Shown here piece after piece: positions 10,068 to 59,754 of a stretch of 64,000 bases of DNA. Both the position numbers and the translations under genes were made by a program. The DNA comes from Armatimonadota bacterium (lineage in GTDB: Bacteria > Armatimonadota > SYMT01). The notes beneath the pieces were generated by a model. The model was not told where the DNA came from, ran no database searches, and saw only the letters and a list, made by a program, of their open reading frames with translations. Where the stretch lies: positions 160,001 through 224,000 of the forward strand of contig JAWLHY010000012.1 of NCBI GenBank assembly GCA_041690135.1. The letters run 5' to 3'. Position 1 is the first letter of the stretch. Each line of letters opens with the position of its first letter.

Positions 10068-13000
10068 ATGAAGGCGCCAGCCAGGCCGAAAGTACCAGCG
10101 CCTGCGGGTGGCACCCTCCTAGCGTGGCAACGGCAAGTGGCGGAACTGAACCGCGAGATCCAACAGATCAAGCAGTGGCAACAGCAGCCCGGCACGGTCT
10201 ACGGCACCGCCCAGCGAATGATTGAAGCGCGGATCACCCGCATGAGCCTGCTGAAGCAGCGGATCGAGGAAGCGAAGCGCGGGGTTCGCACGCCGCCCAC
10301 CCATCCCCAATCGGTGGAGCGGCGGAGCGCGCAGGCAAAGCAAGCCATGGCGCGGTCCGCGGCCCACCGGCGCGCAAAGAATGCTTTCAACGCCACGGTG
10401 CCGATCGACCTGATCCGCCTGGAAGCGGAGCGGGAGAGCCCTCTGACCCAGCAGGTCGCGAGTGGTCTGGCGGGAGTGGTGGGTGCGGACCCCTACCAGG
10501 ACGAGTCGCGGGCCATTCTCCGCAAGCGGCAGCAGAAGGGCACGGCGCCGACCCTACGAGTCCAGCCCGCAGAGGTGGGCCAGATCCAGGCCCTGCGGCC
10601 CTATGTGGAGGACTTCCTGAACGCCACGCGCCGGGATTACCACACGCTGCGGAAGCAGGGGATCACGCCGCTTTCCGTGGACCGGCTGCGCGCGTATCTC
10701 CAGCAGGAATATGCGGGTCGCCGGAAGCTGACGGCGGCGCAGGAACGGGCGTTGCCGGGCATCCTCGCCGGGCTGCAAGTGCGGTGGGACGAGCGGGTGC
10801 GCGGCGCCAAGCGCGTAGGCGCCCGCCTGGCGGAGAATGCCGTCGGCGTGGCGACCGGCGGAGCGGGCCTCTTGCCGCGCGCGGCGGCGGCGGCCAGCGC
10901 GGGGATCGTCGCGCAGGCGTTCGTCGATACGAACCATCCGGAACTGACCGCGGCGGAACGGCTCCAGTCGGCCGGCACGGCGGGTCTGTTTTCGGCCGGT
11001 GCGGAGGGTCTCGGCGCCGCGTGGCAGGCAGCGCGCAAGGTGAAGAGCCCCACGGTCTCCCCGGGACCGGTATCGCCGCACCCGGTACCCGGGGCGCCAC
11101 ACTCCGCAAAGCCGGGGCCCGCCGGAGGGCCGTTCGCGGAAGCGAAGCCGGGGAACTCCCTTCCGGCAAAGGCTCCCTCTCCCGGCCCGGCTCCCCGGCC
11201 CCGCCCGGGAACGCGCGTGACGGTGAAGACGCCCCGCGGCGCCCGGATTACCGGGGAGGTCACCCGCTCCTCGCCGGACGGTCGGACGGTGTACGTGCGG
11301 AACTCCGCCACGGGTAAGGAGGTGCCGGCCAGGGTACCGCCAAAAGGCGCACCAGGCGTGCCCCAGAAGGGCGCGCCCGCGACACCCTCGAAAGCCCCTG
11401 CGAATCCGAAGCAGCCGGCGGTAGGCGGTCCCCAGCCTACTCCGGCACCGCAGCAGGCGTCTCCGGCCGCGAAGCCACCGTACCCGCCGGTGCCCGCGCG
11501 CCCCGCGGAACCCCCGGCCGTTACCGGATGGTCGGAGCCTACTCCCGCTTCGCAGGGAACCTTGACCACGGCGCAGCATGGGGGACACCCCGGCGACGAA
11601 CGCCCGCCTGGCAAAGCAGACGGCGAACGACGTGGCCGGGGCCGCCCCGGCTCCCCGCAGCCGGCCGGAGGGGGCACCGGGTAACCGCAGTGCTCCGGCG
11701 TCACCGGGCGCCACCGGCAACCGGAAACCGGGTACCGCACCGGACGCGACGGGCAACCCGAAACCCGCTACCGCACCGGACCCGGTGGAAGCACGGTCGG
11801 GCCAGCGCGGCGATACACCCCCCGCGGTGCCGGAGGCGCCGGTGACCCGGGGAGGCCCGGAACCGGAAGGGGTCCCGGCGAAAGCGACCGGATCTCGTCG
11901 GCGCCGTCCGGTGGAAGGGATGCACGACTCCGCCCTGACGGGAACGGCGGCCACCGCCACGACGCGCGCCGCCGCGCGCGCCACCGGGCGGACGGCACCG
12001 GGAATCCCCACCGGCACGCCCGTGGCCACCCCTACGGGCGGGAGCATGGCCTCCCCCGGCGGGCCACCTTCCCCCGGCGGAACACCCCCCACGGGGGGAC
12101 CGCCCCGCGGCGCGCCACCCGGTGCCCCCGGACAACCGCAACCGAGAACCACTACCGCCCCCGCGCAGCAGCCGGGGGCGGTCGGCGTTTCTGGCTCCGC
12201 GGGAGGGAGCAAAACCCCCACGTCCCAGAGCCAGGGAAGGCCTCCGGGACTCACCCCGGGTGGCCCCCCATCGGGGCCGCTTCGCCAGGCGGAGGTCGAG
12301 GAGGACATCCGCGACGTACTGGCGCGGCTCCGGAGCGGCGGCCGGAAAAGCAACGAGAACGGCGCCTTCACCCGCGCGGGGGATGAGCAGCGGCTGAGAG
12401 ACCTCCGGCAGGAGCGGCAGGACCTGGTGCGCGGCCGGGGCGGGCGGTACCGGGTGGGGGAGCCGGTGGTCGGCACCCGGCACAACGGGACAAGGGAGGC
12501 GCTGGTCTACGACGGGATGGCCAGCGACACGCACGCCTACGTGAGAGACCCCAGGACGGGACGGCGGCGTTCGGGAACGGTGCCGGTCGAGCGCCTGCGG
12601 ATACCAGCACCCGGTGTCCCCAACAGCCGTCGTGCAAAGCTTCATGCCCACTTGGATGCAGCGGAAGCCGCCGCCCGGCAGAAGTTGAGTGCGCTCCGGG
12701 CTTCGCGCCGGGGCGGGAAACTCGCTGCCGGGCTTGGCGGCTTTAGTGACCTGCTGGAGGAAGCACCGCACTGGATCGAGATCGGCGCGGTGCAGATGGC
12801 ACGTGGACTGCTCGAGTTCGACGCCTGGTCGCGCCGGATGCTGGAGGAGTTGGGGGACGAACTGCGGGCCACGGGGCGGAACGTGGATGAATTACTCCGG
12901 GAGATCTGGGGTCTCTCACGAAGAGTACATGGTGAAGAAACACATAGCCGTGGCAAACAAACGTCCGATCTGATTCTAGGGAAGAAGAGCCTCGCGTTCA

Positions 13001-13526
13001 CGCCCGCCGAAAGGGAATTAAAGCCGCTTCACTGAAGCCTAAGAGCAAGAAGGGTGCTGCCAACTACCTCAAAGCCGCGGAGGAGCGTGAGTATCCAGAT
13101 AGCGCTGCCTTCCCTTGGGGAGAGGGTGATTTTAAGGTGTGGTTCGACAGTGCGAATATGGAAACTTTCGTGGCGGCATGGACTGATAAGACCGTTAGAC
13201 TAGCTATCGAACGGCGGATCCGCCACCCCGGAGGTCTCCACGAATGGTTGATGACCGCACGGGCAGACAAATTCAAGGAGTGGGGTATGTCTATTGCGCT
13301 GATTCATGAGCTACGTACCCGCATAGTAGATGTGGAGTGGGTTAATCCATCTGGGCGCCACGGTGGAAAGGGTTCGGGGCGAGCTCACAGGGAAATCTTA
13401 AAGCTGATCGACGCCAGTGCGACCTATGGCGAGTATGTAGTTGCTTTGAACAAGTGGGCCGACAGTCGCCTTAAGGGTGGTCGGACTGCATTGCCTGATG
13501 GACTTCAGATTGTGGAGGGGAGATGA
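10068..13526 (+). pseudogene. Polymorphic giant protein A, broken into three frames (10068-11684, 11578-13035, ~12948-13526); His-rich putative nuclease-type toxin tip
   Basis: N-part is paralogous to D (RMIEARITRMSLLKQRIEEA / AGVVGADP). Carries the shared linker and shared domain. Tip reads RHPGGLHEWL...GRHGGKGSGRAHREIL...LPDGL. Confidence 0.7.
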
Positions 13527-14203
13527 CGGAGAGTAAGCTATACGAATTCTGGCAATCCGTTGTGGGCGTAGACGAAGATGAGAGTTGGTCTGAACCAGCC
13601 GACTTGGTCTTCCTTTTCCAGAATTTTCGTCCCCATGGTCAAGGAGTAGAGAGGATTCTCAATGGTTTTTGGGGAGCGAGGCAAATGCTTCCGCGATTGC
13701 TGGAAGTATACAAAGCCACTGCCTCAGGATGGGATGCGCGTCCAGTTGCATTTGATTACTTCCTAGTGACTGAACCTACGCACATCGATGACTCCCGCGT
13801 AGAGGAGTTAATCAGGAGCTACCTGGACAAGATGAAGCGTATGGCCGAAGAGATCAACTACAGGCAGACTGCGTCGAATCTATCGGTTGTTGAGCGAGTG
13901 CAGATCGTCCGGGCGCAAGATGCACCCCACTCATTGGATTTGAGCAGAACCGAGGACTTGCTTTATGCAATGCAGAGTGACTTTTTCAGCTTGACGCCGA
14001 GCCAACCCAGTGAACTGTGGTTGCTGGAACCCGCGTTGTATTCGATGGCCAATGATAACCCGCTTACGTACCATCTGCTCTGGCCCTTGAAGGCGAAAGG
14101 CAGTAGTGTAGAAGAACCGTTTCTACCCTACTTCGAACTTTGGAAACATGCAGTAACCCTCAGGTTGGATGCTGATCGGGCAACCGCTTATATTCCGGCA
14201 TGA
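13523..14203 (+). CDS. Putative immunity protein for tip A
   Basis: ATGA-coupled to the tip ORF, lower GC than its surroundings, 226 aa, no recognised motif. Confidence 0.6.
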   Translation: MTESKLYEFWQSVVGVDEDESWSEPADLVFLFQNFRPHGQGVERILNGFWGARQMLPRLLEVYKATASGWDARPVAFDYFLVTEPTHIDDSRVEELIRSYLDKMKRMAEEINYRQTASNLSVVERVQIVRAQDAPHSLDLSRTEDLLYAMQSDFFSLTPSQPSELWLLEPALYSMANDNPLTYHLLWPLKAKGSSVEEPFLPYFELWKHAVTLRLDADRATAYIPA

Positions 14204-14259
14204 CGAACACAAGCATGGAGGGTGCCGAAACAAGTAGCCGGATCCATTTCTGGATGAGG

Positions 14260-14475
14260 TCGTGGGTCGGGCTGTCGGCACCCGCACTGGGACAACCGCG
14301 GCCACGACACTGGCCGGAAGCGTCGGCTCACCCGCCGGGGGAGCCCCGGCAGGCGGAGCACCCCCCACGGGGGGACCGCCCCGCGACGCGCCGCCCGGTG
14401 ACTCCGGACAACCGCAACCGAGAACTACCACCGCCCCCGCGCAACAGCCGGGGGCGGTCAGCGTTTCTGGGTCCG
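14260..14475 (+). repeat. Orphan linker remnant with hairpin (GGAPPTGGPPR...[11 protein letters not shown])
   Basis: DNA similar to 12040-12195, 55880-55990 and 58520-58660. Confidence 0.85.
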
Positions 14476-14502
14476 GCTCGGGGGCGTCGACGGCCGGGAG
14501 GA

Positions 14503-14588
14503 AGCGGGTTGGGCAGAAATTGCCCAGAAAGGGGCCTCTCGATGGCTAATTTCGCGCTGGTCGGACTATCTACCCATCGGGAGGACCG
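14503..14588 (+). promoter_or_regulatory. Leader element copy 2, 5' half (palindrome, promoter-like segment, RBS)
   Basis: Near-identical to 9270-9355. Confidence 0.8.
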
Positions 14589-14592
14589 ACCG

Positions 14593-15015
14593 GTGAACAG
14601 TGATTTCGAAACCCAACTGTCCGAATACTGCCGCGAGGCCCGGCTGACAGCCGTACAGACGGAGATCGTGGAGCTCTACCTGATCCTGGAGATGCCGCCA
14701 GCGCAGATCCGCTTGAAGACGGGGCTGAAACGGGTGAGCCAGGTGCAGGCGGAACTCGCCAAAGCGCTCCGGAGGCTGCAAGCCGTGGCGCCCGGCTTCT
14801 GGGAAGAGGGGAACGCCTTCCCCCGGCACCTGCTGGCGGCGGTGCGCAACCGTCCCGAACGCGACGAGCGGCCGCGGGACGTACGGGGCGTGACCCCGGA
14901 CCGGGAGGCGGAGCGGGCGCCGCGGGTGCGGATGGTGACCGCGGGCGACCGGCGCCTCCGGCAGGACCTCCGCAGCGCGGCCCGGTTGTGGGCGCGGTCG
15001 CGGAGTGGTGCATAG
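14593..15015 (+). CDS. Sigma70 region-4-like HTH protein; candidate late activator/antiterminator
   Basis: GGAGG RBS before GTG; LTAVQTEIVELY......PAQI....GL..VSQV...L.KALRRL resembles the sigma-4 HTH; located directly before the lysis/packaging genes. Confidence 0.55.
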   Translation: MNSDFETQLSEYCREARLTAVQTEIVELYLILEMPPAQIRLKTGLKRVSQVQAELAKALRRLQAVAPGFWEEGNAFPRHLLAAVRNRPERDERPRDVRGVTPDREAERAPRVRMVTAGDRRLRQDLRSAARLWARSRSGA

Positions 15016-15222
15016 GGACTACCAAGACACGAGTGCTTCAGTTGGGCGAGTAAACTCACGCCTACAAACAGCGACTGCCCACACCCACTCCGTGGGTGCC
15101 CGGCGCCCGCCTCCGTCGGCTGGAAACAACAATGCAGTTGTTTGCTGCCAAATCCTCAGGTTCCGCAGTCACACAACGCTTGATCGGGGTGTCCACTGCG
15201 CTCCGGGCGGCGCACTCATTAA

Positions 15223-15315
15223 CATCACTCCCTGAATTACGGCAGGGTCAGGGCTTTGTACCGCTGGTGAGACGGCGCGCTCACCGGACCGTGATACCGC
15301 AGCGGGTATTTCTTT
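15223..15315 (+). ncRNA. Leader element copy 2, 3' half (candidate pseudoknotted RNA)
   Basis: Matches 9356-9445 and 34951-35045, with base-pair-preserving changes. Confidence 0.55.
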
Positions 15316-15337
15316 GCCTACCGGAAAGGGGGTGGGG

Positions 15338-15619
15338 GTGGACTTCAAGGAGGTGCTGATGGGCGTGCAGCTCGTCGTGTCGCTCCTCACGCTGCTGGCC
15401 CTGATCTTCGGCGCGGGCCGCTTTACGAGCCGCATCGAGGAAGGGCTGGTGGGCGTGCGCGATGACCTGAGCGAGCACACGCAACGGGAAGAGAAGCGGT
15501 TCGACGAGATCCGCGGCAAGCTCCACACGCAGGCGGACCGGCTGCAGGAGCTGACTACGACGCAGGCGACACAACACACACGGCTGGCCCACCTGGAACA
15601 GGGCGGCAGCCGGCGCTGA
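15338..15619 (+). CDS. Holin-like small membrane protein (N-terminal TM helix + coiled coil)
   Basis: Hydrophobic stretch VLMGVQLVVSLLTLLALIFGAG; upstream of the endolysin. Confidence 0.55.
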   Translation: MDFKEVLMGVQLVVSLLTLLALIFGAGRFTSRIEEGLVGVRDDLSEHTQREEKRFDEIRGKLHTQADRLQELTTTQATQHTRLAHLEQGGSRR

Positions 15620-15644
15620 CCACGGAACAACGAAAGGATGGTGG

Positions 15645-15890
15645 ATGATGGACCTCTCTAATTGGGTGCTGGCCCTGCTCGCGCTCTCCCCGAAGACGAA
15701 GGGATTGGCGAAAGCGCTCCGGTGGCTGGAAGCCAGCATGGAGGAAGACGAGAAGCTGCGGGCACTGGCGCCGGGCGAACAGACGGTGCTGGAGCTGCCC
15801 GATGCCCTGGACCCGAAGCTCCGCTCCCGAGGCGGAAAGCGGTTTTCGGTCGACGCGGTGGTCGTAAAACGGCTGGGAGAAGAGCGATGA
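15645..15890 (+). CDS. Hypothetical protein in lysis cluster
   Basis: RBS present; ATGA overlap with the endolysin gene. Confidence 0.55.
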   Translation: MMDLSNWVLALLALSPKTKGLAKALRWLEASMEEDEKLRALAPGEQTVLELPDALDPKLRSRGGKRFSVDAVVVKRLGEER

Positions 15891-16597
15891 GCGACTTCGA
15901 ACGAGCGATGGCCTTCGTGCTACGGCACGAAGGCGGCTACGTCCGCGACCCTGACGACCCGGGCGGCGAGACGAACCAGGGGGTTACGCGGCGGGTGTAC
16001 GACACGTATCGCCTGGCCCAGGGGCTGGTGACCCGCTCCGTGCGGCTGATCAACCCCGAAGAGGTGCGGGAGATCTACCGGACCCGCTACTGGCAACCCG
16101 CACACTGCGAGGGCATGACCTGGCCGCTGAACGCCGCGGTGTTCGACGCGGCGGTGAACACGGGAGTCCGCCAGGGCCGGAAGCTGCTGCAGCGAGCGCT
16201 GGAGGTGACGGACGACGGCCAGTGGGGACCGGAGACGGCCGCGGCCGTGCAGAAGGCGGCGCCGAAGGAGACGGCGCTCCGGATGGGCCGGGAGCGGATT
16301 GAGTTCTACCATCGCCTGGCGGAGGAACGACCGGCCCTCTCCAAGTTCCTGCGCGGCTGGGTGCACCGGGTCAACGCCTTGAGCGGGCTGATCGAAGAAC
16401 GGCCGGAGGAGACGCCGGTGACGGTGCTGGTGGACGGCCGCGAGCTTACCGGGGTGGCGACGCTGACGGAGCAGGGGGTCACGGTGCTGCTGCGGCCGGT
16501 GGCGGAGGCGCTGGGGGCGCGGGTGCACTGGGATGGGAGGACGAGGACCGTTAGGGTCGCTTCCGCGACGGATCAGGCGGTGGGCAGTAGGCAGTAG
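15887..16597 (+). CDS. Glycoside hydrolase family 108 endolysin with PG-binding domain and copper-amine-oxidase-N-like tail
   Basis: LRHEGGYVRDPDDPGGETNQGVT, FDAAVNTG, KFLRGWVHR; C-terminal LRPVAEALGARVHWDG. Confidence 0.9.
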   Translation: MSDFERAMAFVLRHEGGYVRDPDDPGGETNQGVTRRVYDTYRLAQGLVTRSVRLINPEEVREIYRTRYWQPAHCEGMTWPLNAAVFDAAVNTGVRQGRKLLQRALEVTDDGQWGPETAAAVQKAAPKETALRMGRERIEFYHRLAEERPALSKFLRGWVHRVNALSGLIEERPEETPVTVLVDGRELTGVATLTEQGVTVLLRPVAEALGARVHWDGRTRTVRVASATDQAVGSRQ

Positions 16598-16716
16598 GCA
16601 GTGGAGGGCCTTCGGCCGATTGGATGAGGATTAGGATGAGGATCGGCCTGCGGCCTCTGGAAGGCAGTGGGTAGTGGAGGGATGGAGGGGTGAGGGGTGG
16701 GTGGAGAGGCGGGTGG

Positions 16717-16780
16717 GAGTAGGAGTAAGAGTAAGAGTAAGAGTAGGAGTAAGAGTAAGAGTAAGAGTAAGAGTAAGAGT
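16717..16780. repeat. (GAGTAR)n hexamer microsatellite, ~10 units
   Basis: Read directly. Confidence 0.95.
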
Positions 16781-16850
16781 GGGGATAGGTAGAGTATGAG
16801 TGGGGATAGGCAGAGTATGAGTGGCTCCGGGATGGGGGAGGTGTGGGAGG

Positions 16851-17450
16851 ATGATGATGGAGAGGGATGAAGATCGACCGGGGGAGGGGCGCGGGGGGCA
16901 GGAGGTGGTTGGTGCGGCTGGGCCGCGGGTGCGGGAGTCGCTGGATGCGCTGGAGCAACTGCTGAAGGGCCTGGAGCGGGTGAACCTGCTGATGGATGCC
17001 TGCGACGCGTGGCTGCGGGATGCCGAAGACCCGTCGCGCTACCACCTGGGGCCGCGCGCGTCGGAGATCGAGGTGCTTTATGAAGTGGAGCTGCCGGCGA
17101 AGGACGGAGCCCGGGCGCGGACGGAGAAGCGGCGCAGGAAACTCTCGGAGCTGCTCGCACTGATGAAGACGCTGGACGAGGGCGACGGGAGCGTGGTGTA
17201 CACCGAGGTGAAAGAGACCCGGTATGCCGATCCGCGCGACCTGGTGCTGAAGACCTCCGTGGAGGCCCGGCAGATCGTGTCGCTGGCGGTGGACCTATCG
17301 CGCAGCCTGGCGGACGTACGCGCCATGGAAACGCTGCGTGACGCCATGCTGGCGGAGTGGGCGAGGATGGCTCCGGAAGCGGCGGAGCGGATTGCGGAGG
17401 CGGTGCGCCGGGTGGCGATGGTCCACCGAAACGGGACCAGCACCGCCTGA
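16851..17450 (+). CDS. Hypothetical protein, possible terminase small subunit
   Basis: Helical-looking ~200 aa ORF with RBS, immediately upstream of TerL. Confidence 0.5.
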   Translation: MMMERDEDRPGEGRGGQEVVGAAGPRVRESLDALEQLLKGLERVNLLMDACDAWLRDAEDPSRYHLGPRASEIEVLYEVELPAKDGARARTEKRRRKLSELLALMKTLDEGDGSVVYTEVKETRYADPRDLVLKTSVEARQIVSLAVDLSRSLADVRAMETLRDAMLAEWARMAPEAAERIAEAVRRVAMVHRNGTSTA

Positions 17451-17467
17451 ACAGGAGGGACGGATCA

Positions 17468-18259
17468 ATGGCTACCGGATCGCGGGCACGTTTCGACGTG
17501 CCCGCTTTTGTTTCGGACCTGCTGCCGAGGATGAAGCCGTACCTGCCTCCGGAGCCGGAGCAGGCGCCGAACCCCTACAAATCGAGCTTCCTCCTGTTCC
17601 TGCGCGATTGCGTGTGGACCGTGGACGAGGCGCGAGGCGGCGAGGTACGGCGCTGGCCCTGGGGGGTGGGCAAAGACGGAAAGAGCTGGGAGGAGTACTG
17701 GAATGACTGGGACGTGGCACTGCACAAGTATCCTCGCCTGTTTGTCGACAAGACGCGCCGCACGATGGCGTCGAATGTGGTGGTGGCGTGGGACCTCTGG
17801 CTGCTGGCCGGGGGGACGGACGGGAAGGCTCGCTGGCCGGAACTGGCCGGGAACGATGGCAACCGCTCGGTCCTGATCCAGAGCAAGAAGCTGGAGGGAG
17901 AGACCGGCAGCCAGGCGTTCATCGCGAAGATCAAGCGGATGTGCCAGCACTTTGAAGATCGCGGCGGCCGGGAGCTGTGGCCGGACTTTCCCGAATGGGA
18001 GATCGGCCTGACCAAGGGGCACTTCAGCAACGGGAGCCGGGTGGAGGCGGTGGCGCAGGGCGGCGACCAGGTGCGGGGGCCCGGCTCCACCCACATCCAC
18101 ATCGAGGAAGCCGGGTTCATGGACCAGGTCCAGGAGAGCATCGAGACGGCGATCCCGGCGCTGGCGGGCGGGGGGCACATCACCGTGGTGACGACGCCGA
18201 ACGCCAACGCGACCTACCTGAAACGGCTGCGGGCCGGGGAACTGGGGGCGAGAAGATAA
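17468..18259 (+). CDS. Terminase large subunit, ATPase half
   Basis: Walker A-like DKTRRTMAS, Walker B HIHIEEAGFM, coupling motif VVTTPN. Confidence 0.8.
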   Translation: MATGSRARFDVPAFVSDLLPRMKPYLPPEPEQAPNPYKSSFLLFLRDCVWTVDEARGGEVRRWPWGVGKDGKSWEEYWNDWDVALHKYPRLFVDKTRRTMASNVVVAWDLWLLAGGTDGKARWPELAGNDGNRSVLIQSKKLEGETGSQAFIAKIKRMCQHFEDRGGRELWPDFPEWEIGLTKGHFSNGSRVEAVAQGGDQVRGPGSTHIHIEEAGFMDQVQESIETAIPALAGGGHITVVTTPNANATYLKRLRAGELGARR

Positions 18260-18260
18260 G

Positions 18261-19217
18261 ATGCTGCGGATGTTGGACACGCCGGATGAGTGGGGGATCC
18301 TGGAGATCCGCGGGATGGAGCACACGCCGGAATACGACCCGGACGTGATCGGCGCGGGGATGAGCGTGCAGACGTACCGGCGGGAAGTGCTGGGGGACTG
18401 GAGCGCCACCACCGGGAAGGTGGTGTACCCCGAGTTCGGGGCGATCCACAAGGCGCTGGACCCCCTGCCGTTCGATCCGGGCCGTCCGCTGGTGTGCGGC
18501 TGGGATTTCGGCGGATCTCCCACCAGCGGGACCCCCGCCTTCGTACCGACCCAGCTCAACGCGCGGAGGCAGTGGCTGGTCTACCCGCCCCTGGTGCCCG
18601 GCGAGCAGGAGACGGTGGGGATCTATGAGTTCACCCAGTGGGTGGCCCAGTACCTGGCCGAGGAGTTCGCCGCCCCGGCCGGCCTCGCGCTGCCGGAGCT
18701 GAAGCTGGTCCACATCGGCGACCCCGCGGGTGACTACCACCCGCCCCGTACCCAGGGCATGACGAGTAGCCGCCTGGAGATGCGGAGCTGCTATCAGATC
18801 ATCGAGCGCGGGCTGCAGGTGGTGGTCGGGCACACGGAGTTTGGCCAGCCGATCGTGGAGGAGAAACCGGGCTTCGGCTGGCGCGTGAAGCGCGGCGAGG
18901 TGACCCTGGCGAAGCGGATGGAAGCGCTGCGCTCGCGGTTGACGATGCTGGTGGACGGCGGTCTGCCGGCGCTGGTGGTGGACCCGGCGGCCAAGATGAT
19001 CATCGACGGGTTCGAGGGCGGCTATCACTACCCGCAGCGCCAGGATGGGCGGTACGAGCTGGACCCGGCGAAAAACCACTTCTCCCACCCGATGAACGCC
19101 CTGGAGTACGCGGCGAGCCGGTTGGGGACGGCCTTCGCGCCGGAGCCGGACGACGAGGGGCCGGCCCGGGGCCGGGAGTTCACGACGCGGACGCCGGGGA
19201 GGCGGAGACCGGATTAG
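18261..19217 (+). CDS. Terminase large subunit, RNase-H-like nuclease half
   Basis: CGWDFG, IGDPAG, KN..SHPMNALEY motifs. Confidence 0.8.
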   Translation: MLRMLDTPDEWGILEIRGMEHTPEYDPDVIGAGMSVQTYRREVLGDWSATTGKVVYPEFGAIHKALDPLPFDPGRPLVCGWDFGGSPTSGTPAFVPTQLNARRQWLVYPPLVPGEQETVGIYEFTQWVAQYLAEEFAAPAGLALPELKLVHIGDPAGDYHPPRTQGMTSSRLEMRSCYQIIERGLQVVVGHTEFGQPIVEEKPGFGWRVKRGEVTLAKRMEALRSRLTMLVDGGLPALVVDPAAKMIIDGFEGGYHYPQRQDGRYELDPAKNHFSHPMNALEYAASRLGTAFAPEPDDEGPARGREFTTRTPGRRRPD

Positions 19218-19536
19218 GACCATGATAACGATAAGGATAAGGAGAGGGATGGCAGAACCAGATCTCTTCTTATCGGGGCGGGGTGCGTGCTTCTGCGCTT
19301 TCGGCCCCCTACCCCGGCTATGCCGATTAGGATGAAGATGAAGATTAGGATAGGGAGAACGCACTTCGGCTGTCACGGCTTCTTCTCTGGACTCCAAGTG
19401 CGTGCTTCCGCGCTTTCGGCTCTCCCCCCAATCCAAGGGAAGTGCGAGTTCGGGACTGGTGCAGCTGGTGAGGCCGAGCTGATGTGAGGATTGACTCCGG
19501 TCAGGATTGAGATCACGAGATGACGCTGGTAGGTGC

Positions 19537-19568
19537 GGGCGACCTGTGGGGTCGCCCTTTTCTTTTTT
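19537..19568 (+). terminator. Intrinsic terminator
   Basis: gggcgacc-loop-ggtcgccc followed by a T-tract. Confidence 0.75.
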
Positions 19569-19582
19569 CTGGGGAGGGCGGG

Positions 19583-20515
19583 ATGAGACAACGGTTGTTG
19601 GGGACAGTCCGGGAAAGCAACGGGCTGGAAGGTAGCGACGGCCTGGCGGGGTGGTACCAGCCGGTGGGGTCGTATTACCTGGTCCGGTTCCTCGAAGCGG
19701 AGACGGAGAGCGCGGGGGGCATTGCGCTGCCGGAGACGGCGCTGCCGGACGTGCAGAGCGCGCTGGTGCTGGCACACGGTTCCGGTCCGGTGCTGGCGAA
19801 CGGGCGGCGGTACCCGATGCAGGGCGCCGTGGGGGACGTGGTGGTGAGCCAGTCGTTCCGGTTCGAACGGATGGACGGGCAGGCGTTTCTCGCGGATGAG
19901 AGCCTGGTGGCGCTCCAACGGTGGGATGGCGAGGGGCATGGGGCGCTGCAGGCCGCGGGGGACTGGGTGCTGGTGCGGCCGGATGGAGCGAAGCAGGTGG
20001 ATGCGGAGACGCGCGCGACGGTGCAGGCGCGGGAGAGCGGCGTGCTGGTGGCCTGCGCGAGCGTGGGCGGCGGGCACCTGCGGGAGCAGCAGCGCGGCGA
20101 CGAGATCGTCCGGGAACTGGAGGCGCTGGTCCGGACCGAGGCGTTCCGGCAGCAGCCGAGCGAGTTCTATCGCCACCGCATGATCCACGACTACCTGGAC
20201 GGCCTGTGCCAGTGGGAACTGCAGGCGCTGGGGACGGCCCTGAAGCGGAAGGGCGAGACAAACTGGCGCCACTACGTGCCGCCGCGGCCCCTGGCCCGTG
20301 CGAGTGCGGGCGTGGTGGTGAGCGTGGGGCCGGGCCGGGTGCTGCGAGACGGCACCCGCCGACCACCGGGGGTGCGGCCGGGTGACCGGGTGCATTTCGA
20401 TCGGCAGTTCCAGGCGGTGGCGCTGTTGTCGGAAGGGGACAGTCTCTGGGCCGTGCGGGAGCAGTTCCTGGCGGCCGTCGAGGTGACGGAGGAGAAGACG
20501 AATGCAGGGTCCTGA
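19583..20515 (+). CDS. Tandem double GroES/Cpn10-like co-chaperonin
   Basis: Domain 1: QPVGSYYLVR..EAETESAGGIALP...VLAHGSG...GDVV. Domain 2: LQAAGDWVLVRP...GVVVSVGPGR...VRPGDRVHF. Confidence 0.85.
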   Translation: MRQRLLGTVRESNGLEGSDGLAGWYQPVGSYYLVRFLEAETESAGGIALPETALPDVQSALVLAHGSGPVLANGRRYPMQGAVGDVVVSQSFRFERMDGQAFLADESLVALQRWDGEGHGALQAAGDWVLVRPDGAKQVDAETRATVQARESGVLVACASVGGGHLREQQRGDEIVRELEALVRTEAFRQQPSEFYRHRMIHDYLDGLCQWELQALGTALKRKGETNWRHYVPPRPLARASAGVVVSVGPGRVLRDGTRRPPGVRPGDRVHFDRQFQAVALLSEGDSLWAVREQFLAAVEVTEEKTNAGS

Positions 20516-22802: not shown

Positions 22803-22833
22803 ACAGGCTGAAGCGGGTGTGGGGCGGAGCGAT

Positions 22834-22861
22834 GGGCTGGGGGTATCCCCCGGCCCTTTTT
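22834..22861 (+). terminator. Intrinsic terminator after portal
   Basis: gggctggggg-tat-cccccggccc followed by TTTTT. Confidence 0.7.
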
Positions 22862-29056: not shown

Positions 29057-29058
29057 GC

Positions 29059-52381: not shown

Positions 52382-55300
52382 ATGGCACTCACTCCGGAAG
52401 AACTCGCGGCCCAGGACCTCGCCCAGGTCCTGGGCCGTTCGCGCATGTCTGGCTCCGACCCGCACGCCCGTCTTGTTACCATCGCCGCGAAGCGGTATGG
52501 GGTGGATGAGGACCTGATCCGCAGGGTTATTCGGCAGGAATCGGGCGGGAATCCCCGCGCTGTCTCCCCGGCCGGCGCTCAGGGTCTCATGCAGTTGATG
52601 CCGGCAACGGCAAAGAGCCTGGGAGTGCGGGATCCCTTCAATCCGGCCGAGAACATTGACGCGGGGGTGCGGTATCTCCGCCAGCAGTTGGATGCATTCG
52701 GCGGCGACGAGCGCCTGGCGCTGGCCGCCTATAACGCGGGGCCAGGGAACGTCCGGAAATATGGTGGGGTGCCCCCGTTCCCGGAAACCCGGCAGTATGT
52801 CGCCCGGATCACCCGCGGCCGGACCGGTGGCCGGATGAGTTCGCGCGGCGGCACGGCGCATCTGACCCCGGAGCAGCTCGCCGCCCAGGACCTGGCGCGG
52901 GTCACCGGCGCGAAGGCCGGTGGTAAGACAGGCACGCTCACGCCCGAGCAGTTGGCCGAGCAGGATCTGGCAAGTGTGCTCGGCCCGGATCCGGTGATGG
53001 AGGCCATCCAGCGCCGCAAGCGCGGCGTGCGGCTCGGCAATCTGGCTCCCACACCGCAGCCGGCCGCGAAACCGGCGCCCAAGGTCGATCTCGCCGGAAT
53101 GCGTCGCCGGGTGCAAGAGCTGGAGAGCACGATCAACGGTCTCCGCCAGCAGCGGGACGCGCTGCCCCCAAACGCCCCGTCCGGACCCCTGCGCCGGCTG
53201 ATTGCCCAGCGCATCTCCGAGATGACCCTGCTGCAGCAGCAGATCGAGGAGGCAGAGACCGGGAAGGCCCTGCCGCTGATGCACCCGGACTCCGTCGCCC
53301 ACCGCCGGCTGCGGGCGGAGCGCGCGCAGAAGCAGGCCGCGGCGCCACCGAAGCGCCCCGTCGATTTCGTGCGGATGCAACCGGTCCGGACCGAGACCCC
53401 GGTAGAACAGGTGCGCAACTTCGTGGCAGGGGTGATCGGCGCCGACCCCAGCCGGGCGCAGTCGCGTGAGATGGTGGACACGCGTGCCGCACGCGCCGGG
53501 CGCCCCCCGTTCCAGGCGACGGACGCCGAACTGCTGGAACTCCAGGCGCTGGAGCCGGCGATGGAAAGATACCTCCAGTTCAGCCGGGGCCGGGGCACGA
53601 ACACCCAGGTGGTGGGGGACGTGGTGATCCCCCAGCCGGAAGATCCCCATTACCGACAGCAGGGATATTCCCAGCCTTACACCGAGGCGGATTTCCGGAA
53701 CTTCCTGCGGCGCGAGGTGTTCGGCGCCAAGGGCCGGTTGACGCCGGTCCAGGAAGCGGCGCTTCCCTACCTGGTGGAAGCCCTGCGGGTGCGGGCGGAT
53801 GAGCGGCAGCGCGGGATTGTGCGGACCAGTTCCCGGTTGGCCGATATCGCGGTAGGGCTAATGACCGGCGGCTCTGGATCCGTGGCCCAGATGGGCCTCA
53901 AGGGCTTCCTGCTCGACCAGGGGAGGCGTCGCGCGATTTCCGGCGGCAGTGCTGCGGCCTCGCGCCTGACCGCGGATGCGGCGAACCCGGATTTGACCGT
54001 GGAGCAGCGGCTGAAGGGGGCAGCCAGCGACGCCGCGCTGGCGATGGGCGTGGACACCCTGACTTCGACCGACCCCATCGTGCGTGACCTGGCGCGTGGG
54101 CGCAAGAACCTCGGGCCGGGGGCCGGGTTTGGCGAGGCGCTGGAGCGCGGGCAGGAGATTACCCGACGGCACGGCGCCCAGAAGCAGGCGAAGGCGCAGC
54201 GGCTGGCGGCGGAAAGGGCAGGGACGACTACGTCTGCGCCTGCTCCATCCCCAATGGCCGCTCCGGAAGCCACAAAGCCAGTGCCATCGGCAGGGATGGA
54301 ATCGATCCCCACCCCCGCTCCCACCATTGGGTCTCGGGTGGTGGTGCGTTGGGAGGACGGATCCACCCTGGAAGGGGAGATTCTCCGCCTCTCCAAGACA
54401 GGCAAGTCCGCTTACATCCGCGGCAGCGATGGCAAGGATCTGGACAAGCCGGTGTTGCTCAAGGACCTGGAGCTTGCCCCGGCTACCGCGGGCAGTGGCC
54501 CTTCCGCGGGTCCGGCGCCAGCCCAGGCGCTAAAAACAGAGGCATCTGGCACTCCCAGCCCCGACAACGATCTTTACTCGGGTCCGTATCCAATCCGCAA
54601 GCGGTCAGGACTCTCGCCGCAAGAACGTGCCGGGGAGGCCCAACGCGCGCAGTACGTCCAGGAGCATATGGATGAACTGGTAGAGGCCTACTACCGTGCA
54701 AATGAAGGTGGGCGGGTCATCAGCTCAGATCGCGCGAAGTGGTTGTTCGCGGAATACCAAGATGAAGCCACGCGCACCGCAGTAGACCGGGAAATCTATT
54801 CTGCCGCGAAAGCCGTCTCGGACGAGGTATTCCGTCGCAAGGTGGCGGAACCAGCCGCCCCAGGACAAAAGGACCTCGTCATTTTCCTCTCCGGCGGACC
54901 GGGTTCCGGAAAGTCGAGTTCGATCAGCGGGTCGCCCGCGGTGCAGGCCGCACACAGCAATGCTCGTCTGGTAGTTGACGGTACCCTTTCCGATATTGAG
55001 GCGGCCCGTCAAATGATGCGGGCCGTAGATGCGCGTAAGAGCAAGCGCATGCTGATCTACGTGTATCTGCCTGCGGATGAAGCGGTCCGCCGGGCAGTCG
55101 ATCGCGCGATGGATGTAAAGGGACCGGACTATTTGCGGGCCGTAAACCTAGAGAACCTCGCTACAGCTCACTACGGAGCCCAGAATACGGTGCTCCGCTT
55201 GGCGGACGAGTTCCCTGACCTTGCAATTGCAATTCTTGACAACCGTGGTCAGCAGGGGCAAGTCGCCGAACTGAGTTTGGACGAACTACGCCAACTCAGG

Positions 55301-57754
55301 TATCGTAATGTGGAAGACGTAAAGGCGCAAGTCCGAGCCGCTTATGATGCGGAATACACCCGACGACAAGGAACAGCAGATGCCATCCCCGACTCCCTCC
55401 ACCGCGGGTTCACGGGTTCTTACGCCCGAAATGCAACAGGAACTCGAGATCTTCAAGGAAAACCTCAATCAGGTCCGGAAGGAAGCGGCGGAAAGGCAGC
55501 GCCAGAAGATGGAAACCTCCCGGACGACCCCGGCGACCCCGGAACTGGCGGAGTAGGCCCCCGCCCCCCTGCCCCTCCTAGCGGCGGTCCGGCCGCTCCC
55601 TCTGCCATACCTCCTCGAGAGAACGACCCCTCTTCCCCAACACCCACCACGTCTGACGGTGGAGCGGCTACCCCCGATCGTAGAAACACCACCGGGCTGG
55701 CCAACCAGGTGCAGGAGGGGGAGGTGGAGCTCGGGATCATCGCGCCCCCGGAGAAGGGGGTGAGCGCCGGGGCGCAAGAGGCCCATGCCGAGGGGAAGCG
55801 CCTGGTGGAGGCCGGCGGGAAGCCACTCCCGCGCCGCGCTCCGGCAGGGGCTTCCGGAGAGACGCCCTTCGGGGATCTTCCTCCCGCAGGAGGCCCACCC
55901 CGCGGAGCGCCGCCCGGTGACTCCGGACAACCAAACTCGAAAACCTCAACCGCCCCCGCGCAACAGCCGGGGGCGGTTAGATTTTCTGGACCCGGCGGGA
56001 GGAGGATCCCCACCGCACCCAGGCAGGGGACGGGCGCGAGGACCGCTCCGCCCGCTTCTGCGCCGGCCGTGCCCAACCAGCAGGAGGTGGAGCGGGAGAT
56101 TGATGTGGTCGTGGAGCGGCTCAAGAGCGGCGGCCGGAAAGGCAACGCGAGCCGGTCCTTCACCCGTGCGGGGGATGAACAGCGGCTGCAGGACCTCCGG
56201 CAGGAGCGGCAGGACCTGGTGCGCGGCCGGGGCGGGCGGTTCCGGGTCGGGGAGCCGGTAGTCGGCACCCAACACAACGGAAAGAAGGAGGCGCTGGTCT
56301 ACGACGGGATGGCCAGCGACACGCACGCGTACGTGAAGGACCCCCGAACGGGGAAGCGCCGGGCGGGCACGGTGCCGGTCGGGAGCCTCCAAAGAACCCG
56401 ATCAGCCCCACCTCAGTCGGATATGGTCGGCGTGCGAAGGACTGCTGAGGGCCAGACTCTACGGGTTCCAGGTTCTGGGGCTCCGGTAGGCCGGCGAGCA
56501 GATCTCCACGCCCGATTGGATGTGGCGGAAGCCACCGCCCGGCAGAAGCTGGCTGCGCTCCGGGCCTCGCGCCGGGGCGGGAAGCTCGCGTCGGAATTGG
56601 GCGGCTTCAACGACCTGCTGGAGGAGGCCTCGCACTGGATCGAGATCGGCGCGGTGCAGATGGCACGGGGGCTCGTGGACTTCGAAGCTTGGTCGCGCCG
56701 GATGCTGGAGGCGGTGGGGGACGAACTGCGGGCCACGGGGCGGAACGTGGATGAATTACTCCGGGAGATCTGGAACGCATCACGAAAGAAGTATGCGGAA
56801 GAGCGGCGGAGTAATCCTGCAGAAGGGCCGGAGAACGTTGAGCCGGATCATAAGCTAGATTTGGCGGTTGGAACGAAAGGTGAGTCGCAGGACTCGGCTC
56901 ACCCACTCCAGTTCAAAACCAAACCCGCCACAGCCGCAAGTGGCGAAGGTCGCCGCAGTCCATCCTCACAGCGCCGGGGAAGCGGAGGGGTTCATGATGC
57001 GTGGAGACAACCAGGCATGCCCAGAGTCCGCTGGAATTGGTCTGGTATTAAGGGGGCAATGCAGTCCGATCGAATCAACGAAGACACTCTGCTCGCTGCA
57101 GTCGAGGACTGGCGCAATAGTATGGAGCTGGATTTCTCGCGGATGGAGATTCGTCTACTTCCGCAGGAAGCGAAGCGCCGTCCCCATCTAGATCTTAGCG
57201 CAGATGTGATCAACGATAACCCTGTCTATGTGCACGGCTTTGTCAACGCAAGGAGCCCGCATGCAATCCATCTCTACAATCCCACCTCGGAATGGCCGGA
57301 CATTCGACAGGATATGCTGCGTGATCTCTATCGTGCACATGGGCGTGGCCTATTGTCTCCTCAAGACTTCCTTGACTTCGTGCGTGAAGCTCCGCGATTA
57401 GCCGAGGAATATATTGCGGGAACTCTGAAGCATGAAACGGGACACTCGCTTCTGGTCGAAACCTTCGGGAATCACCGCCGGCGGAGGTTCAAAGGTTGGC
57501 AGCGACTCATGCCCGATCATCTGTATGGTGTGATGGTAAGTGCGCTGAAGCTGGCTGGGACGAAGACTGACAATGATGCGATTGCAGATTCTATTGCGGA
57601 AGCGGTTGCAGAAGACGTGCGCCGGTGGCATACTGGCTATTATAGCCCTCTCAATAGTCAGACCTGGTTGGCCGATGCGGCCGATCCACATGGAGCTTGG
57701 GAACGTGCAGAGGAGGTATGGAAATGGCTGAAAAACGCTCACGACCGGCGGTAG
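52382..57754 (+). CDS. Giant polyvalent ejection protein D: SLT lytic transglycosylase + zeta-toxin-like P-loop + shared domain + zincin tip
   Basis: [25 protein letters not shown]...ALAAYNAG (SLT); [12 protein letters not shown]...VVDGT (zeta-like); LKHETGH...SIAEAVAE (zincin). Confidence 0.85.
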
Positions 57755-57945
57755 ACACTTTTACGCGCGAGCAGATTGATGCTATTCGGTCCCTTCGCCC
57801 GGGAATGTCGGAAGAGGACGCAGTGGATTTGCTCCATCTCGGGCGACGAATAGCACGCTCGCACGCCCAGATGAGTCCCGTGAGCGAAGAAGAGGAGCCG
57901 GAGTGGGATGTTCAACCCGGAGACGACGATCCCTACGCGGGATGA
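57724..57945 (+). CDS. Small acidic protein, putative immunity for tip D
   Basis: AGGAGG RBS lies inside the end of D; the two genes overlap. Confidence 0.6.
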
Positions 57946-58239: not shown

Positions 58240-58760
58240 CAGAGGCGACCCCTCGCCGGACGCCGGGTGACGCTCCGGAACCGGATACTGAGCGAGGGCG
58301 TCGCCGGGAAGAACCCGGAAACGGGCAGCACACACAAGAGCCGGAAGGGGTCCCGGCGAAAGCAACCGGAGCTCGCCCACGCCCGGTGGAAGGGACGGAC
58401 GAGACTTCCCTGACGGGAACTGTGGCCACCGCCACGACCCGGGCCGCGCGGAACGCCGCCCGGACCGCCTCCGGTACCCAGACGACTACGGCCTCGCCTT
58501 TGGGCGGGAACGTGGACACCCCCGGTGGGTCAGCCCCGGCAGGTGGAGCACCCCCCACGGGGGAAGCCACCCCGCGGCGCGCCGCCCGGCGGCCCCGGAC
58601 AATCGCAACCGAATACCACCACCGCCCCCGCGCAAAAGCCGGGGGCGGTCCGCGTTTCTGGCTCGGGAACACCGGAAGACACTCGGGGGTTCGGGCCGCC
58701 GGAGAGGAAGCCGCAGCGGGTTCCCTGTCCCAGCGGGTTCCAGCACCGGTACCACAGATA
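58240..58760 (+). pseudogene. Orphan linker remnant with hairpin
   Basis: EPEGVPAKATG..RPVEG...LTGT.ATATTRAA duplicates ~11860-11990; hairpin at 58621-58649. Confidence 0.75.
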
Positions 58761-58977
58761 ATACGTGGAGACGTTACGGAGGGGCGACGCCGCCTGGTAG
58801 CCACATCTCGGAGGAAGATTACCATAAGTCGGGCTACCTTCTGCTACAATGGAAACTGTCAGGGTTACAAGCTAAGGGCCGTATGCTAGTCTGGCCTATA
58901 AGCATTCTGGGCCGGTAGACATTCGCTGTGGATGGCCACGACGAGGTCGCCACGAGGCGGGCTCCCCATCCATCTCT

Positions 58978-59460
58978 GTGTGGCAAGGCGGTGACAGGTT
59001 GCCTCAGAACGTTGCGATCTATGGCTATGCACCGGATATCGAAGAGATTCCGGAGAGCCTGCGCAGCATGACCGGAGAGGCTGTGCACGTAGAGGCGCAG
59101 GACGGCCAGTGGAGCAGCATCACGATACAGGGCCGGAACGCTACGCTCGTGTTCCGCTGCCTGCGGCCAGGACCGCCCCCGGACGACTTCTCGCGCGGCA
59201 TCCTCGGGATCTATAACTACGCCAAGCGTATCAAGGCAACATCGGAAGAGATCCAGAAGGAGCTGCTGCACCATCTGGCCAATGCGAAGTGCATCATTGC
59301 CGTAGTGGCCACGCCAGGCTTTGACGTCGATGCCGGGCACCCGGATCTGATTGCGGAAGTTTGCGATCGTGCCGATGGAGTTTTGTTCAATGGCAGGGAC
59401 TTCCTTAATGTGGAGTGGGACGTCCTGCTGGGCGCGGATGGAAGTAGCGAGGTGGAGTAA
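58978..59460 (+). CDS. Hypothetical protein (immunity-like); start uncertain
   Basis: Clean 160-aa ORF downstream of the remnant cassette. Confidence 0.6.
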   Translation: MWQGGDRLPQNVAIYGYAPDIEEIPESLRSMTGEAVHVEAQDGQWSSITIQGRNATLVFRCLRPGPPPDDFSRGILGIYNYAKRIKATSEEIQKELLHHLANAKCIIAVVATPGFDVDAGHPDLIAEVCDRADGVLFNGRDFLNVEWDVLLGADGSSEVE

Positions 59461-59466
59461 GGCGAC

Positions 59467-59754
59467 ATGGTGATCCGTGGAGAAGACGAGGGCTACTTCT
59501 GGTTCGATGACCCCACCCCAAATGGCCCCCCTGATAAGGAATTCTTCGACCTGGCACGGGGATTGTCCCACCTCACTGCGTGGGAGTTGCAGATTGCGTT
59601 AGACGACCTGGCGGAGCAGCTTGGAGTGGCGGCCCCGAGTGCGGAACACTTCCTGGCCACGGGTGAGCTGGACCCCTACCCCGGCGACCCTGCGGATGCC
59701 GTGAAGTGGGCGCTGCCGGCCCCCCGAAGCCGGGCCGACGCACCGGAGGGGTAG
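59467..59754 (+). CDS. Small acidic hypothetical protein
   Basis: Closely spaced after the previous ORF. Confidence 0.55.
   Translation: MVIRGEDEGYFWFDDPTPNGPPDKEFFDLARGLSHLTAWELQIALDDLAEQLGVAAPSAEHFLATGELDPYPGDPADAVKWALPAPRSRADAPEG

Follow-up and report, generated by a model that had tools for sequence, protein, structure and literature searches.

We analysed a 64,000-nucleotide (nt) stretch of DNA (the window) from an Armatimonadota bacterium (GenBank assembly GCA_041690135.1, contig JAWLHY010000012.1, positions 160,001 to 224,000 of the forward strand), in which a plus-strand gene block of ~50 kb is flanked by a host gene for a sensor kinase (5142-9113) and a LysR gene (59948-60841), both on the minus strand. 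Four genes or gene copies of this element, here named A, B, C and D, share a junction after which they run into tips of different families, each followed by a small gene. We give an even chance to the reading that this is a phage-borne polymorphic effector or toxin system, close to the MuF toxins and the polyvalent proteins of phages, built on a new junction module and with cassettes exchanged at a short hairpin-forming DNA core.

Such a system would have two virion-type carriers, B, whose gene follows that of the portal, and D, which resembles T7 gp16 as an internal or ejection protein and bears a lytic transglycosylase domain (SLT). Both would end in a common junction, consisting of a Pro/Gly linker, the 40-nt core and a two-helix plus Tudor/SH3-like domain, that would act like a pre-toxin domain. 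Behind the junction there would be an exchangeable cassette, i.e. a foreign tip of low GC content and presumed enzymatic activity with its small cognate gene, and alternatives would be stored as trunk-less or broken copies (C, A and an orphan module after B). The capsid would take up the carriers, which would be injected into the recipient cell along with the DNA; there the tips (two putative zincin-like peptidases, a DUF3626 domain of the SopF family and the all-alpha module of A) would act, and in the producer the small proteins would render them harmless. Cassettes would be moved, duplicated, displaced and exchanged by recombination at the core and in the conserved module next to it.

The junction was delimited by a repeat scan and blastn, which found a repeat of ~300 nt at four places (12285-12584, 25940-26239, 30211-30510 and 56077-56376), the copies being 71-84% identical. 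In the protein alignment the encoded domain occupies 105 columns, 55 of which are invariant, and the other copies are 59-77% identical to that of D. A Pro/Gly linker lies N-terminal to the domain in all four genes, so that the shared linker and ~100-residue domain described by a first-pass annotation of the window stand. That annotation also had the four genes diverge abruptly beyond the domain, which is the case in B and C, where divergence is immediate; A and D have an extra helical stretch of ~95 residues in common (12626-12909 and 56490-56773, 87% identical in nt) and diverge only then. The domain occurs at four places in the 9.1-Mb draft genome (25 contigs, the source contig measuring 285 kb), all of them within this element. 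When its profile was compared with 1.84 billion representative proteins, there were seven matches at E ≤ 0.001, of which four are the window's own (E ≤ 1e-50) and three are weak (E 5.9e-5 to 5.6e-4), namely two long repeat proteins and one fragment of 115 amino acids (aa) that look unrelated. No relatives of the domain were found among 60 related genomes. Its predicted structure (pLDDT 68) has two helices and a small barrel, which superposes on Tudor domains (Z 7.9, ~2 Å over 53 residues), and comparison of the model with BFVD returned nothing specific. A Tudor/SH3-like barrel, as modelled here, would be a common small fold and uninformative about function.

What follows the junction is of different composition. 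Trunks, linkers and domains have a GC content of 0.67-0.74, the tips of 0.52-0.56 and the small genes of 0.49-0.58, before the value returns to 0.71-0.73 just downstream; the fall of ~15 points occurs exactly at the tips and small genes, and the recovery at the downstream core. The paralog tips cannot be aligned with one another and are of different families, i.e. a conserved part is followed by unrelated tips, as is characteristic of polymorphic toxins. All four tips are followed by a short open reading frame (ORF) with a Shine-Dalgarno-like site, and two of these ORFs overlap the end of the tip. The AT-richer tips and the small coupled gene after each of them had been noticed in the first-pass annotation, and both observations hold.

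No tip matches a PDB sequence, and their assignments differ in strength. The tip of B contains HECAH, and its nearest Atlas clusters are named 'Metalloprotease' and 'Pro-Pro endopeptidase family' (score 0.96); that of D contains HETGH, with nearest clusters that are unnamed or ATLF-bearing (0.93-0.94). Taken together, the Atlas neighbours of the two tips bear the names metalloprotease, Pro-Pro endopeptidase and ATLF, at scores of 0.91-0.96. Neither tip has a match in Pfam or NCBIfam, and tblastn found none in 50,697 phage records. The earlier designation of both as zincins has the motifs and the metalloprotease-named neighbours on its side and no sequence family or PDB match, and we call them putative zincin-like peptidases. 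The tip of C was correctly recognised as DUF3626-like: it matches PF12294 with 34.1 bits against a cut-off of 27 (E 2e-8), profile positions 23-116 of 301 being aligned. SopF has ADP-ribosyltransferase activity. DUF3626 is a domain of this Salmonella effector, according to the part of the source available to us (PMC6682159).

The A tip has two homologs (48% identity) among 627 candidates scored, and each of them stands at the extreme C terminus of an otherwise unrelated protein, of 677 and 536 residues, respectively. The same tip on unrelated carriers is a further feature of polymorphic toxins, present here in both homologs, and a tip that is C-terminal on unrelated proteins behaves like a portable toxin-type module. 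Its predicted structure (pLDDT 71) is almost all-alpha, with nine helices and just two two-residue strands, and no fold match was found (Foldseek against PDB, E > 4; VIA, Z ≤ 3.3; BFVD, E > 3). We also considered the 'His-rich nuclease-like' activity that had been suggested for it, as an HNH or His-Me nuclease, and found it unsupported: no such Pfam match at E ≤ 1 rises beyond noise, the model is almost all-alpha and the best PDB Z is 3.3. With a model of middling confidence this is a weak negative. Searches of viral contigs returned no relatives of the A and B tips.

Among the small genes, those after the tips of A (13523-14203) and C (31626-31916) have no family match; the former is a candidate for the cognate inhibitor of the A tip.

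Two of the four copies, B and D, appear as intact carriers in the sequence. B lies directly 3' of the portal gene (which ends at 22802) and is followed by the small ORF 27258-27527, an arrangement that corresponds to the gene position of MuF toxins. A MuF domain (PF04233, PF06152) was not detected in B, and neither residues 1-300 nor residues 251-700 gave a Pfam match at E ≤ 10, nor did a scan of the whole protein give one. Its trunk shows no BLASTP similarity to that of A and D. In D, an SLT domain was recognised at E 2.2e-31 and a Zeta-like one at E 1.2e-7; PHROG 342, 'internal virion protein with endolysin domain', is matched at E 1.4e-27. Having at least two effector-type domains (SLT, Zeta_toxin and the HETGH tip), D qualifies as a polyvalent protein; B has one such domain recognised. 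Word-indexed searches with residues 1150-1480 of D and 30-760 of B returned the window's own proteins only, and the D trunk has no relatives among 300 genomes of the phylum. These results bear out two statements of the first-pass annotation, that D sits at the podovirus ejection-protein position, at the end of the structural block, with an SLT domain, and that the trunk is not recognisably MuF or Rhs. Its count of four paralogs was overstated, since there are two intact carriers, a trunk-less C and a frame-broken A, and the trunk of B is unlike that of A and D. Of the multi-copy polymorphic effector system that it proposed, the carriers, variable tips, coupled genes and orphans remain, and the four paralogs on a single type of trunk do not.

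The other two copies are incomplete. The trunk part of A is a paralog of D residues 237-737 (BLASTP, 29% identity, E 9e-41), and A spans three successive frames (10068-11684, 11578-13035 and 12948-13526) and is not one open gene; its second part is listed as a separate 467-aa protein (P0005) in a public library. No slippery site or homopolymer was seen at either frame junction, and the simplest reading of the sequence is that A is a frame-broken copy, although the sequence may contain an error. C is a trunk-less copy of the 3' part of B (25220-26252 in B and 29506-30523 in C, 85% identical in nt), whose start ATG stands where B has AAG and which has no good ribosome site. C looks like an orphan cassette, and A and C look like stored or displaced copies.

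Additional modules stand downstream of the cassettes (Table 1). In three of the four pairs of cores described below, the downstream core opens an in-frame alternative C-terminal module, of which the copy after B is complete and those after C and D are cut short. To judge from its layout, the module after B is a complete alternative, with a native pre-tip part, a foreign tip and a partner gene. The product of that gene (29059-29466) is 44% identical to the small protein of B over 50 aa (E 2e-12), and both it and 27258-27527 match PHROG 33375 (E 4.4e-7 and 4e-5). The low-GC part of the orphan (28460-29056) has no detectable similarity to the B and D tips. Stand-alone cassettes that keep the conserved part are thus found at 27609-29466, in C, at 31997-32340 and at 58338-58757, in agreement with the orphan cassettes claimed in the first-pass annotation. 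Two ORFs at the right end of the block (58978-59754) are possibly orphan partners.

Broken copies of this kind could also be the functionless pseudogene remnants of a decaying prophage, linker fragments and orphans included, a lesser rival that we consider quite improbable. It would account for A in three frames, the TAG at 28457-28459, the frame change in the linker downstream of D, the split TerL-like gene and the lack of any integrase or replication gene among those found. It sits poorly with the long intact frames of B, C and D (1447, 692 and 1790 aa), with a core stem that is invariant in 8/8 copies, and with a relative, ~90-92% identical, from an independent soil metagenome, in which the genes of 16.9-27.7 kb stand in the same order.

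The core itself is a segment of ~40 nt, composed of CCGCCCCCGCRCARMAGCCGGGGGCGGT, a short spacer and TTTCTG, that is nearly invariant at eight sites in the alignment of linker copies. When the 9.1-Mb genome was scanned with a 28-nt core pattern, there were eight exact matches on the plus strand, all in this block, and none on the reverse strand; a control pattern had no match in the 9.1 Mb. Because both the domain and the core are confined to this element, the repeats are not genome-wide noise. The eight cores form four pairs (12155/14431, 25750/27609, 30021/31997 and 55950/58622), each of which brackets the shared domain, a tip and a small gene. The core folds as a hairpin of 10 + 2 base pairs in every copy, with a stem invariant in all eight and sequence variation confined to the apical part. 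The downstream cores after A, B and C form a long second hairpin, and the one after D only a short one. In addition, the peptide TAPAQ(Q/K)PGAV is in frame at 8/8 sites, and seven of the eight cores use the rare codons GTT (8%) and TCT (6% of the codon family in the phage's long genes). The core is the sole segment common to all eight sites. Its left flanks comprise one large group and two unrelated ones (after B and after C), and its right flanks group as B with C, as A with D, as the copies after B, after C and after D, and as the copy after A by itself. Homology in the flanks therefore starts or stops at the core in differing combinations, which is the pattern expected from recombination at the core.

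The same segment might be chiefly an RNA-level signal (a pause, attenuator or processing site) that gates the tips, or its peptide a protease cleavage site, and no recombination joint, which we think improbable. The stable hairpin in 8/8 copies, the long second hairpin at three downstream copies (A, B, C) and the peptide in frame at 8/8 sites would all suit such a signal, as would a near-identical 30-nt hairpin in an Akkermansia metagenome-assembled genome (L017), which is intergenic and precedes a T-run. Four cores lie inside long ORFs, however, and the breakpoints of homology on both sides coincide with the core, which a pure expression signal does not predict. Moreover, the terminator-like sites of the phage have an immediate T-run where the core has TCGGCGTTTCTG.

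Two related candidates were set aside. The Akkermansia hairpin was judged unrelated, being intergenic, followed by a T-run and terminator-like. The core was also rejected as an intrinsic terminator, on account of its tail, and a terminator scan misses it yet calls three typical sites nearby; the phage's own terminator-like sites carry the T-run directly after the stem.

Metagenome contig L016 carries the core as well, at 38/39 nt, including the GTTTCTG tail. It stands there in the corresponding place of the architecture, in a Pro-rich linker after an ORF of 1098 residues with a weak phage-lysozyme match, and the APAQKPGAV frame leads to an ORF of 625 residues. No further similarity of DNA or protein was detected between L016 and the window. 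Near-complete synonymous identity in so diverged a contig points to selection on the nucleotides or to recent transfer of the joint; L016 is a single case, and the core peptide is conserved in it too. In L016 (1985-2030, minus strand), the trunk ORF and the ORF with the core peptide are one base out of frame beside a run of nine C, and the trunk and linker parts of A are likewise one frame apart 5' of the core. The offset in L016 may be error, decay or programmed slippage. In IMG/VR, the core was found neither by exact nor by peptide-degenerate pattern.

VENN and PxxxxDPxGL are the pre-toxin boundary motifs of Rhs, CdiA and MafB loci. We tentatively raise the possibility, although we regard it as unlikely, that the core is a dedicated cis-acting joint for the capture and excision of effector cassettes in phage virion-protein genes. 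It would then be the phage counterpart of an integron attC site or of a VENN-type boundary, would be conserved at the nucleotide level across phages with no detectable protein similarity remaining, and would be driven by phage single-strand-annealing recombination or by a recombinase that escaped recognition. A dedicated recombinase beside the repeated sites, as in integrons and shufflons, was not found in the ORFs scanned.

Related DNA was found in two metagenome runs (X1 and X2). In X2, an independent soil metagenome, a 9.2-kb contig is colinear with 16920-25644, from the TerL-like gene to the B trunk, and a 1.9-kb contig corresponds, with 147 differences (~92% identity), to 25748-27659, a stretch that runs from the B core through the domain, tip and small gene to the downstream core. 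These colinear contigs show that the architecture is not peculiar to this assembly. Four runs were compared; stretches of the small gene of A (13435-14101) and of the C tip (30777-31443) had no contig cover in them, which has no bearing on absence. The X2 contigs break at the repeats. Several linker joints in X2 suggest mosaic copies, yet they lie inside repeats and are ambiguous: the joint from 27659 to 32041 rests on 40 letters inside a repeat and may reflect mosaic similarity instead of deletion, and those from 14470 to 12284, 29792 to 25529, 12544 to 26214 and 26182 to 14331 are likewise ambiguous. A joint from 14588 to 15223 may stem from the other copies of a 180-nt element described below, beyond the stretch compared. 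IMG/VR held distant portal relatives only (24-28% identity), and no RNA runs with the element were listed among the public runs.

These relatives bear on the suspicion that the repeats arose when related strains were assembled into a chimera. A genome drafted in 25 contigs, with repeats of 0.3-1 kb at 71-89% identity, invites mis-joins. We consider a chimera highly improbable, given that the copies are diverged (71-89%) and not collapsed near-identical strain variants, that the order is colinear with the 9.2-kb and 1.9-kb X2 contigs, which span the portal gene, B and the B cassette, and that all eight cores have the same orientation in one 50-kb block.

The main rival is a reading, unlikely in our view and still the weightiest of the alternatives, in which B and D are ordinary phage proteins, polyvalent or internal to the virion, that serve to take over the host. 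Their tips would be injected helper enzymes, with the zincins cutting the Pro-rich linkers to release domains, and the small genes would not confer immunity; the repeats would be leftovers of a tandem duplication from B to C and an older duplication from D to A, and exchange would be over. Several observations fit. D unites SLT and a Zeta-like domain with HExxH, the polyvalent pattern published in the part of the source drawn on here (PMC5512222); the repeats of B and C are 4271-4388 nt apart, as tandem duplication gives; the B cassette is unchanged in the X2 relative; and the B tip resembles clusters named for Pro-Pro endopeptidases while the linkers are Pro-Pro-rich. Duplication alone does not explain the low-GC tips, however. 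Nor does this rival explain why a core follows every cassette, including those of A and D, with differing combinations of flanks, why the same 39 nt recur in the unrelated L016, why the A tip is common to unrelated proteins, or why a small gene preceded by a Shine-Dalgarno-like site follows each of four unrelated tips.

A number of points weigh against the polymorphic effector system. The zincins of phage polyvalent proteins have been proposed to be self-processing peptidases and not toxins, in the portion of the source at hand (PMC5512222). No small gene matches a known immunity family in profile family scans, and it is the layout of the genes from which toxicity of the tips and neutralisation by the small genes are proposed. 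The B tip and small gene are kept at ~92% in X2, the one relative, and replacement of the tip is not seen for B. When the four in-frame cores are taken alone, 9/12 invariant residues have identical codons compared with 28/54 in the domain, which is not striking. The N-terminal parts of B have no match to MuF or any other Pfam family, even at E ≤ 10, in the sequence comparisons made. A can be read through only with two frame changes, an in-frame TAG stands in the orphan after B, C has no good ribosome site and the TerL-like gene is spread over two frames; the element may be in decay. Finally, an infectious particle is not assured: the contig has no integrase gene, a serine recombinase was not found in the genome, and none of the genes was recognised as one for replication.

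The comparison with known systems places the polymorphic effector system among phage-delivered modular effectors, which are known already. Genes of MuF toxins lie after the portal gene, 20% have metallopeptidase tips and 89% precede a small ORF (Jamet et al. 2017, PMC5576092). For Bxa and Apk2, immunity proteins have been proven, according to the part of the report available (PMC11699363). The likeness consists in a carrier after the portal gene (B), a conserved carrier with a variable tip and a small ORF after it, tips of metallopeptidase and ADP-ribosyltransferase type, and presumed delivery by the capsid. In contrast, no MuF domain was detected here, the second carrier is an SLT-bearing ejection protein, and several cassettes and orphans occur in one phage with a common junction module and hairpin-repeat brackets; the text of the MuF paper (PMC5576092) uses neither 'orphan' nor 'recombination'. 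In polyvalent proteins, the metallopeptidase (MPTase) domain is the commonest, and Zeta-like kinase, ADP-ribosyltransferase (ART) and lysozyme domains are present too (Iyer, Burroughs, Anand, de Souza, Aravind 2017, PMC5512222, as far as the part available to us goes); according to the same part, they are presumably carried in the head and injected. The common ground is a large phage protein that joins a lysozyme or transglycosylase with domains of the zincin MPTase, Zeta-like kinase and ART types, and D fits this pattern directly. On the other hand, polyvalent proteins are described without cognate small genes, orphan cassettes or junction-sharing sets of paralogs in that part of the source (PMC5512222), and the variable part here is one terminal cassette instead of a long row of domains.

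Recombination with stand-alone cassettes is how polymorphic toxins diversify, according to the available part of Zhang et al. 2012 (PMC3482391). On the evidence of that part, Rhs, CdiA and MafB proteins resemble the present ones in a conserved boundary followed by a variable tip and a partner gene, and Rhs, CdiA and Maf-type loci do so in displaced orphan modules that keep a piece of the conserved region, and in recombination with stand-alone cassettes. They differ in that the presumed vehicle here is the phage virion, and that the boundary is a 40-nt hairpin-forming DNA core with a Tudor-like domain, the core also standing after each cassette. Ejection proteins of the T7 gp16 type are matched by D in its N-terminal SLT, PHROG 342 and location at the end of the tail or structural block, whereas D has ~1600 further residues, including the Zeta-like domain, the junction module and the zincin-like tip. 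What is new here is a junction module with no relatives, shared by two different carriers, with orphan arrays in a phage, and a hairpin core present at both ends of every cassette and again in an unrelated phage-like contig. A narrow literature search, with the supplements of the MuF and polyvalent papers outside it, found no pairing of 'internal virion protein' with 'polymorphic toxin' and no hairpin-bounded cassettes in phage virion proteins.

The remaining genes of the block (Table 1) suggest by their family matches, which are all this assignment draws on, a short-tailed SU10-like phage. Its TerL region consists of two adjacent ORFs in different frames (17357-18259 and 18261-19217), with the TerL match in the second only and no family match for the first in Pfam/PHROG-type scans; it may be a split or broken gene or, judging from the sequence, have an ATPase half that has diverged strongly. 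Family scans of the ORFs in the block (9200-59800) recognised no gene for an integrase, a recombinase or replication. Tyrosine integrases (PF00589) have seven matches genome-wide, none of which is on the source contig, and serine recombinases (PF00239) have none genome-wide. Direct repeats of at least 12 nt joining the two ends of the element were not found, nor were Rfam families or tRNAs in the 64-kb window. The element may be defective or domesticated, or may use genes that were not recognised.

Several other features of the region were noted. An element of ~180 nt is present in three copies, 81-92% identical (9250-9453; 14482-14588 with 15223-15328; and 34861-35058), each of which holds the start of a short ORF, MA(K/N)FALVGLST(Q/H)REDR. 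The second copy is split by 634 nt that lengthen the ORF to a 156-aa protein (14545-15015), which by eye only resembles a small helix-turn-helix or sigma-region-4-like regulator and has no family match. The copies may be operon-start marks or a regulatory leader. An AGGAT-rich intergenic motif (GCCGATTAGGATGAGGATTACGATTAGGATAAGGAG) is repeated 5' of several structural genes and may be a common leader or translation signal. The 848-aa gene at 46992-49538 has tandem repeats of 168 nt (four, 47397-48182) and 120 nt (two, 48613-48852), and its product is probably a repeat-domain tail or fibre protein. To the left of the element, two large PAS/GAF sensor kinase genes flank 3721-4582, where a DNA-binding protein of LexA type (E 1e-17) and an HTH_3 protein are encoded.

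Table 1. Coordinates of carriers, cassettes, cores and other features, in positions of the window
Feature	Position	Strand	Description
B	22860-27203	+	1447 aa from TTG; 1434 aa in public library (start 22860 or 22899)
B parts		+	Own trunk; linker; core 25750-25789; domain 25941-26255; HECAH tip 26256-27203 (GC 0.52)
Small gene after B tip	27258-27527	+	Cys-rich; PHROG 33375
D	52382-57754	+	1790 aa; last large gene of structural block
D parts, N-terminal			SLT residues 32-129; trunk; Zeta-like P-loop domain 859-955; linker
D parts, C-terminal			Core 55950-55989; domain 56081-56392; helical extension to 56773; HETGH tip 56774-57754 (GC 0.56)
Small gene after D tip	57718-57945	+	Acidic, 75 aa; overlaps D end
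A trunk part	10068-11684	+, frame 0	Paralog of D residues 237-737; lacks SLT and Zeta-like domains
A second part	11578-13035	+, frame 1	Linker; core 12155-12194; domain 12286-12600; helical extension to ~12909
A tip	12948-13526	+, open frame 0	GC 0.54; split from A second part by frame change
Small gene after A tip	13523-14203	+	226 aa, GC 0.51; start overlaps tip stop (ATGA)
C	29522-31600	+	692 aa; core 30021-30060; domain 30212-30526; DUF3626 tip 30527-31600 (GC 0.54)
Small gene after C tip	31626-31916	+	96 aa
Hairpin cores, 40 nt	12155-12194, 14431-14470, 25750-25789, 27609-27648, 30021-30060, 31997-32036, 55950-55989, 58622-58661	+ (all)	
Linker copy after A cassette	14282-14475	+	Core 14431-14470; 81% identical to 12006-12199; frame closes ~25 codons past core
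Orphan module after B	27609-29466	+	Core 27609-27648 opens in-frame pre-tip part
Orphan pre-tip part	27662-28459	+	GC 0.69; in-frame TAG 28457-28459
Orphan low-GC part	28460-29056	+	GC 0.56; HDVCH
Orphan small gene	29059-29466	+	Homolog of B small gene
Downstream copy after C cassette	31997-32340	+	Core 31997-32036, then truncated orphan pre-tip part, 81% identical to 27609-27900
Linker fragment after D cassette	58338-58757	+	78% identical to A 11860-12197; internal frame change
Core after D cassette	58622-58661	+	Followed by truncated copy of orphan pre-tip part
Two small ORFs (160, 95 aa)	58978-59754	+	Before host LysR gene; no family match
Endolysin	15662-16597	+	Family match
TerL-like ORF	18261-19217	+	PHROG 2, E 3.6e-8
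GroES/Cpn10-domain protein, 331 aa	19520-20515	+	E 1.2e-17; between terminase-like and portal genes
SU10-type portal	20502-22802	+	PF23899, E 1.2e-20
Capsid protein	38386-39327	+	PF25209
Two SU10 adaptor proteins	39979-40614, 40496-41359	+	Family matches
AGGAT-rich motif copies	16601-16643, 19204-19252, 19317-19365, 37517-37573, 37611-37667, 39329-39377		

Most of what is known of toxins and effectors delivered by phages comes from MuF fusions and polyvalent proteins. The pairs of cores described here are a concrete handle on how such tips are exchanged, and the element adds four pairs of tip and partner from the little-studied phylum Armatimonadota. If the core is a joint, the tip on each virion protein would be switchable within a population, and the Tudor-like module would be an adaptor that makes any captured tip packageable. 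Should the element prove devoid of functions for replication and integration, it might be a capsid-bearing particle that the host retains to deliver proteins.

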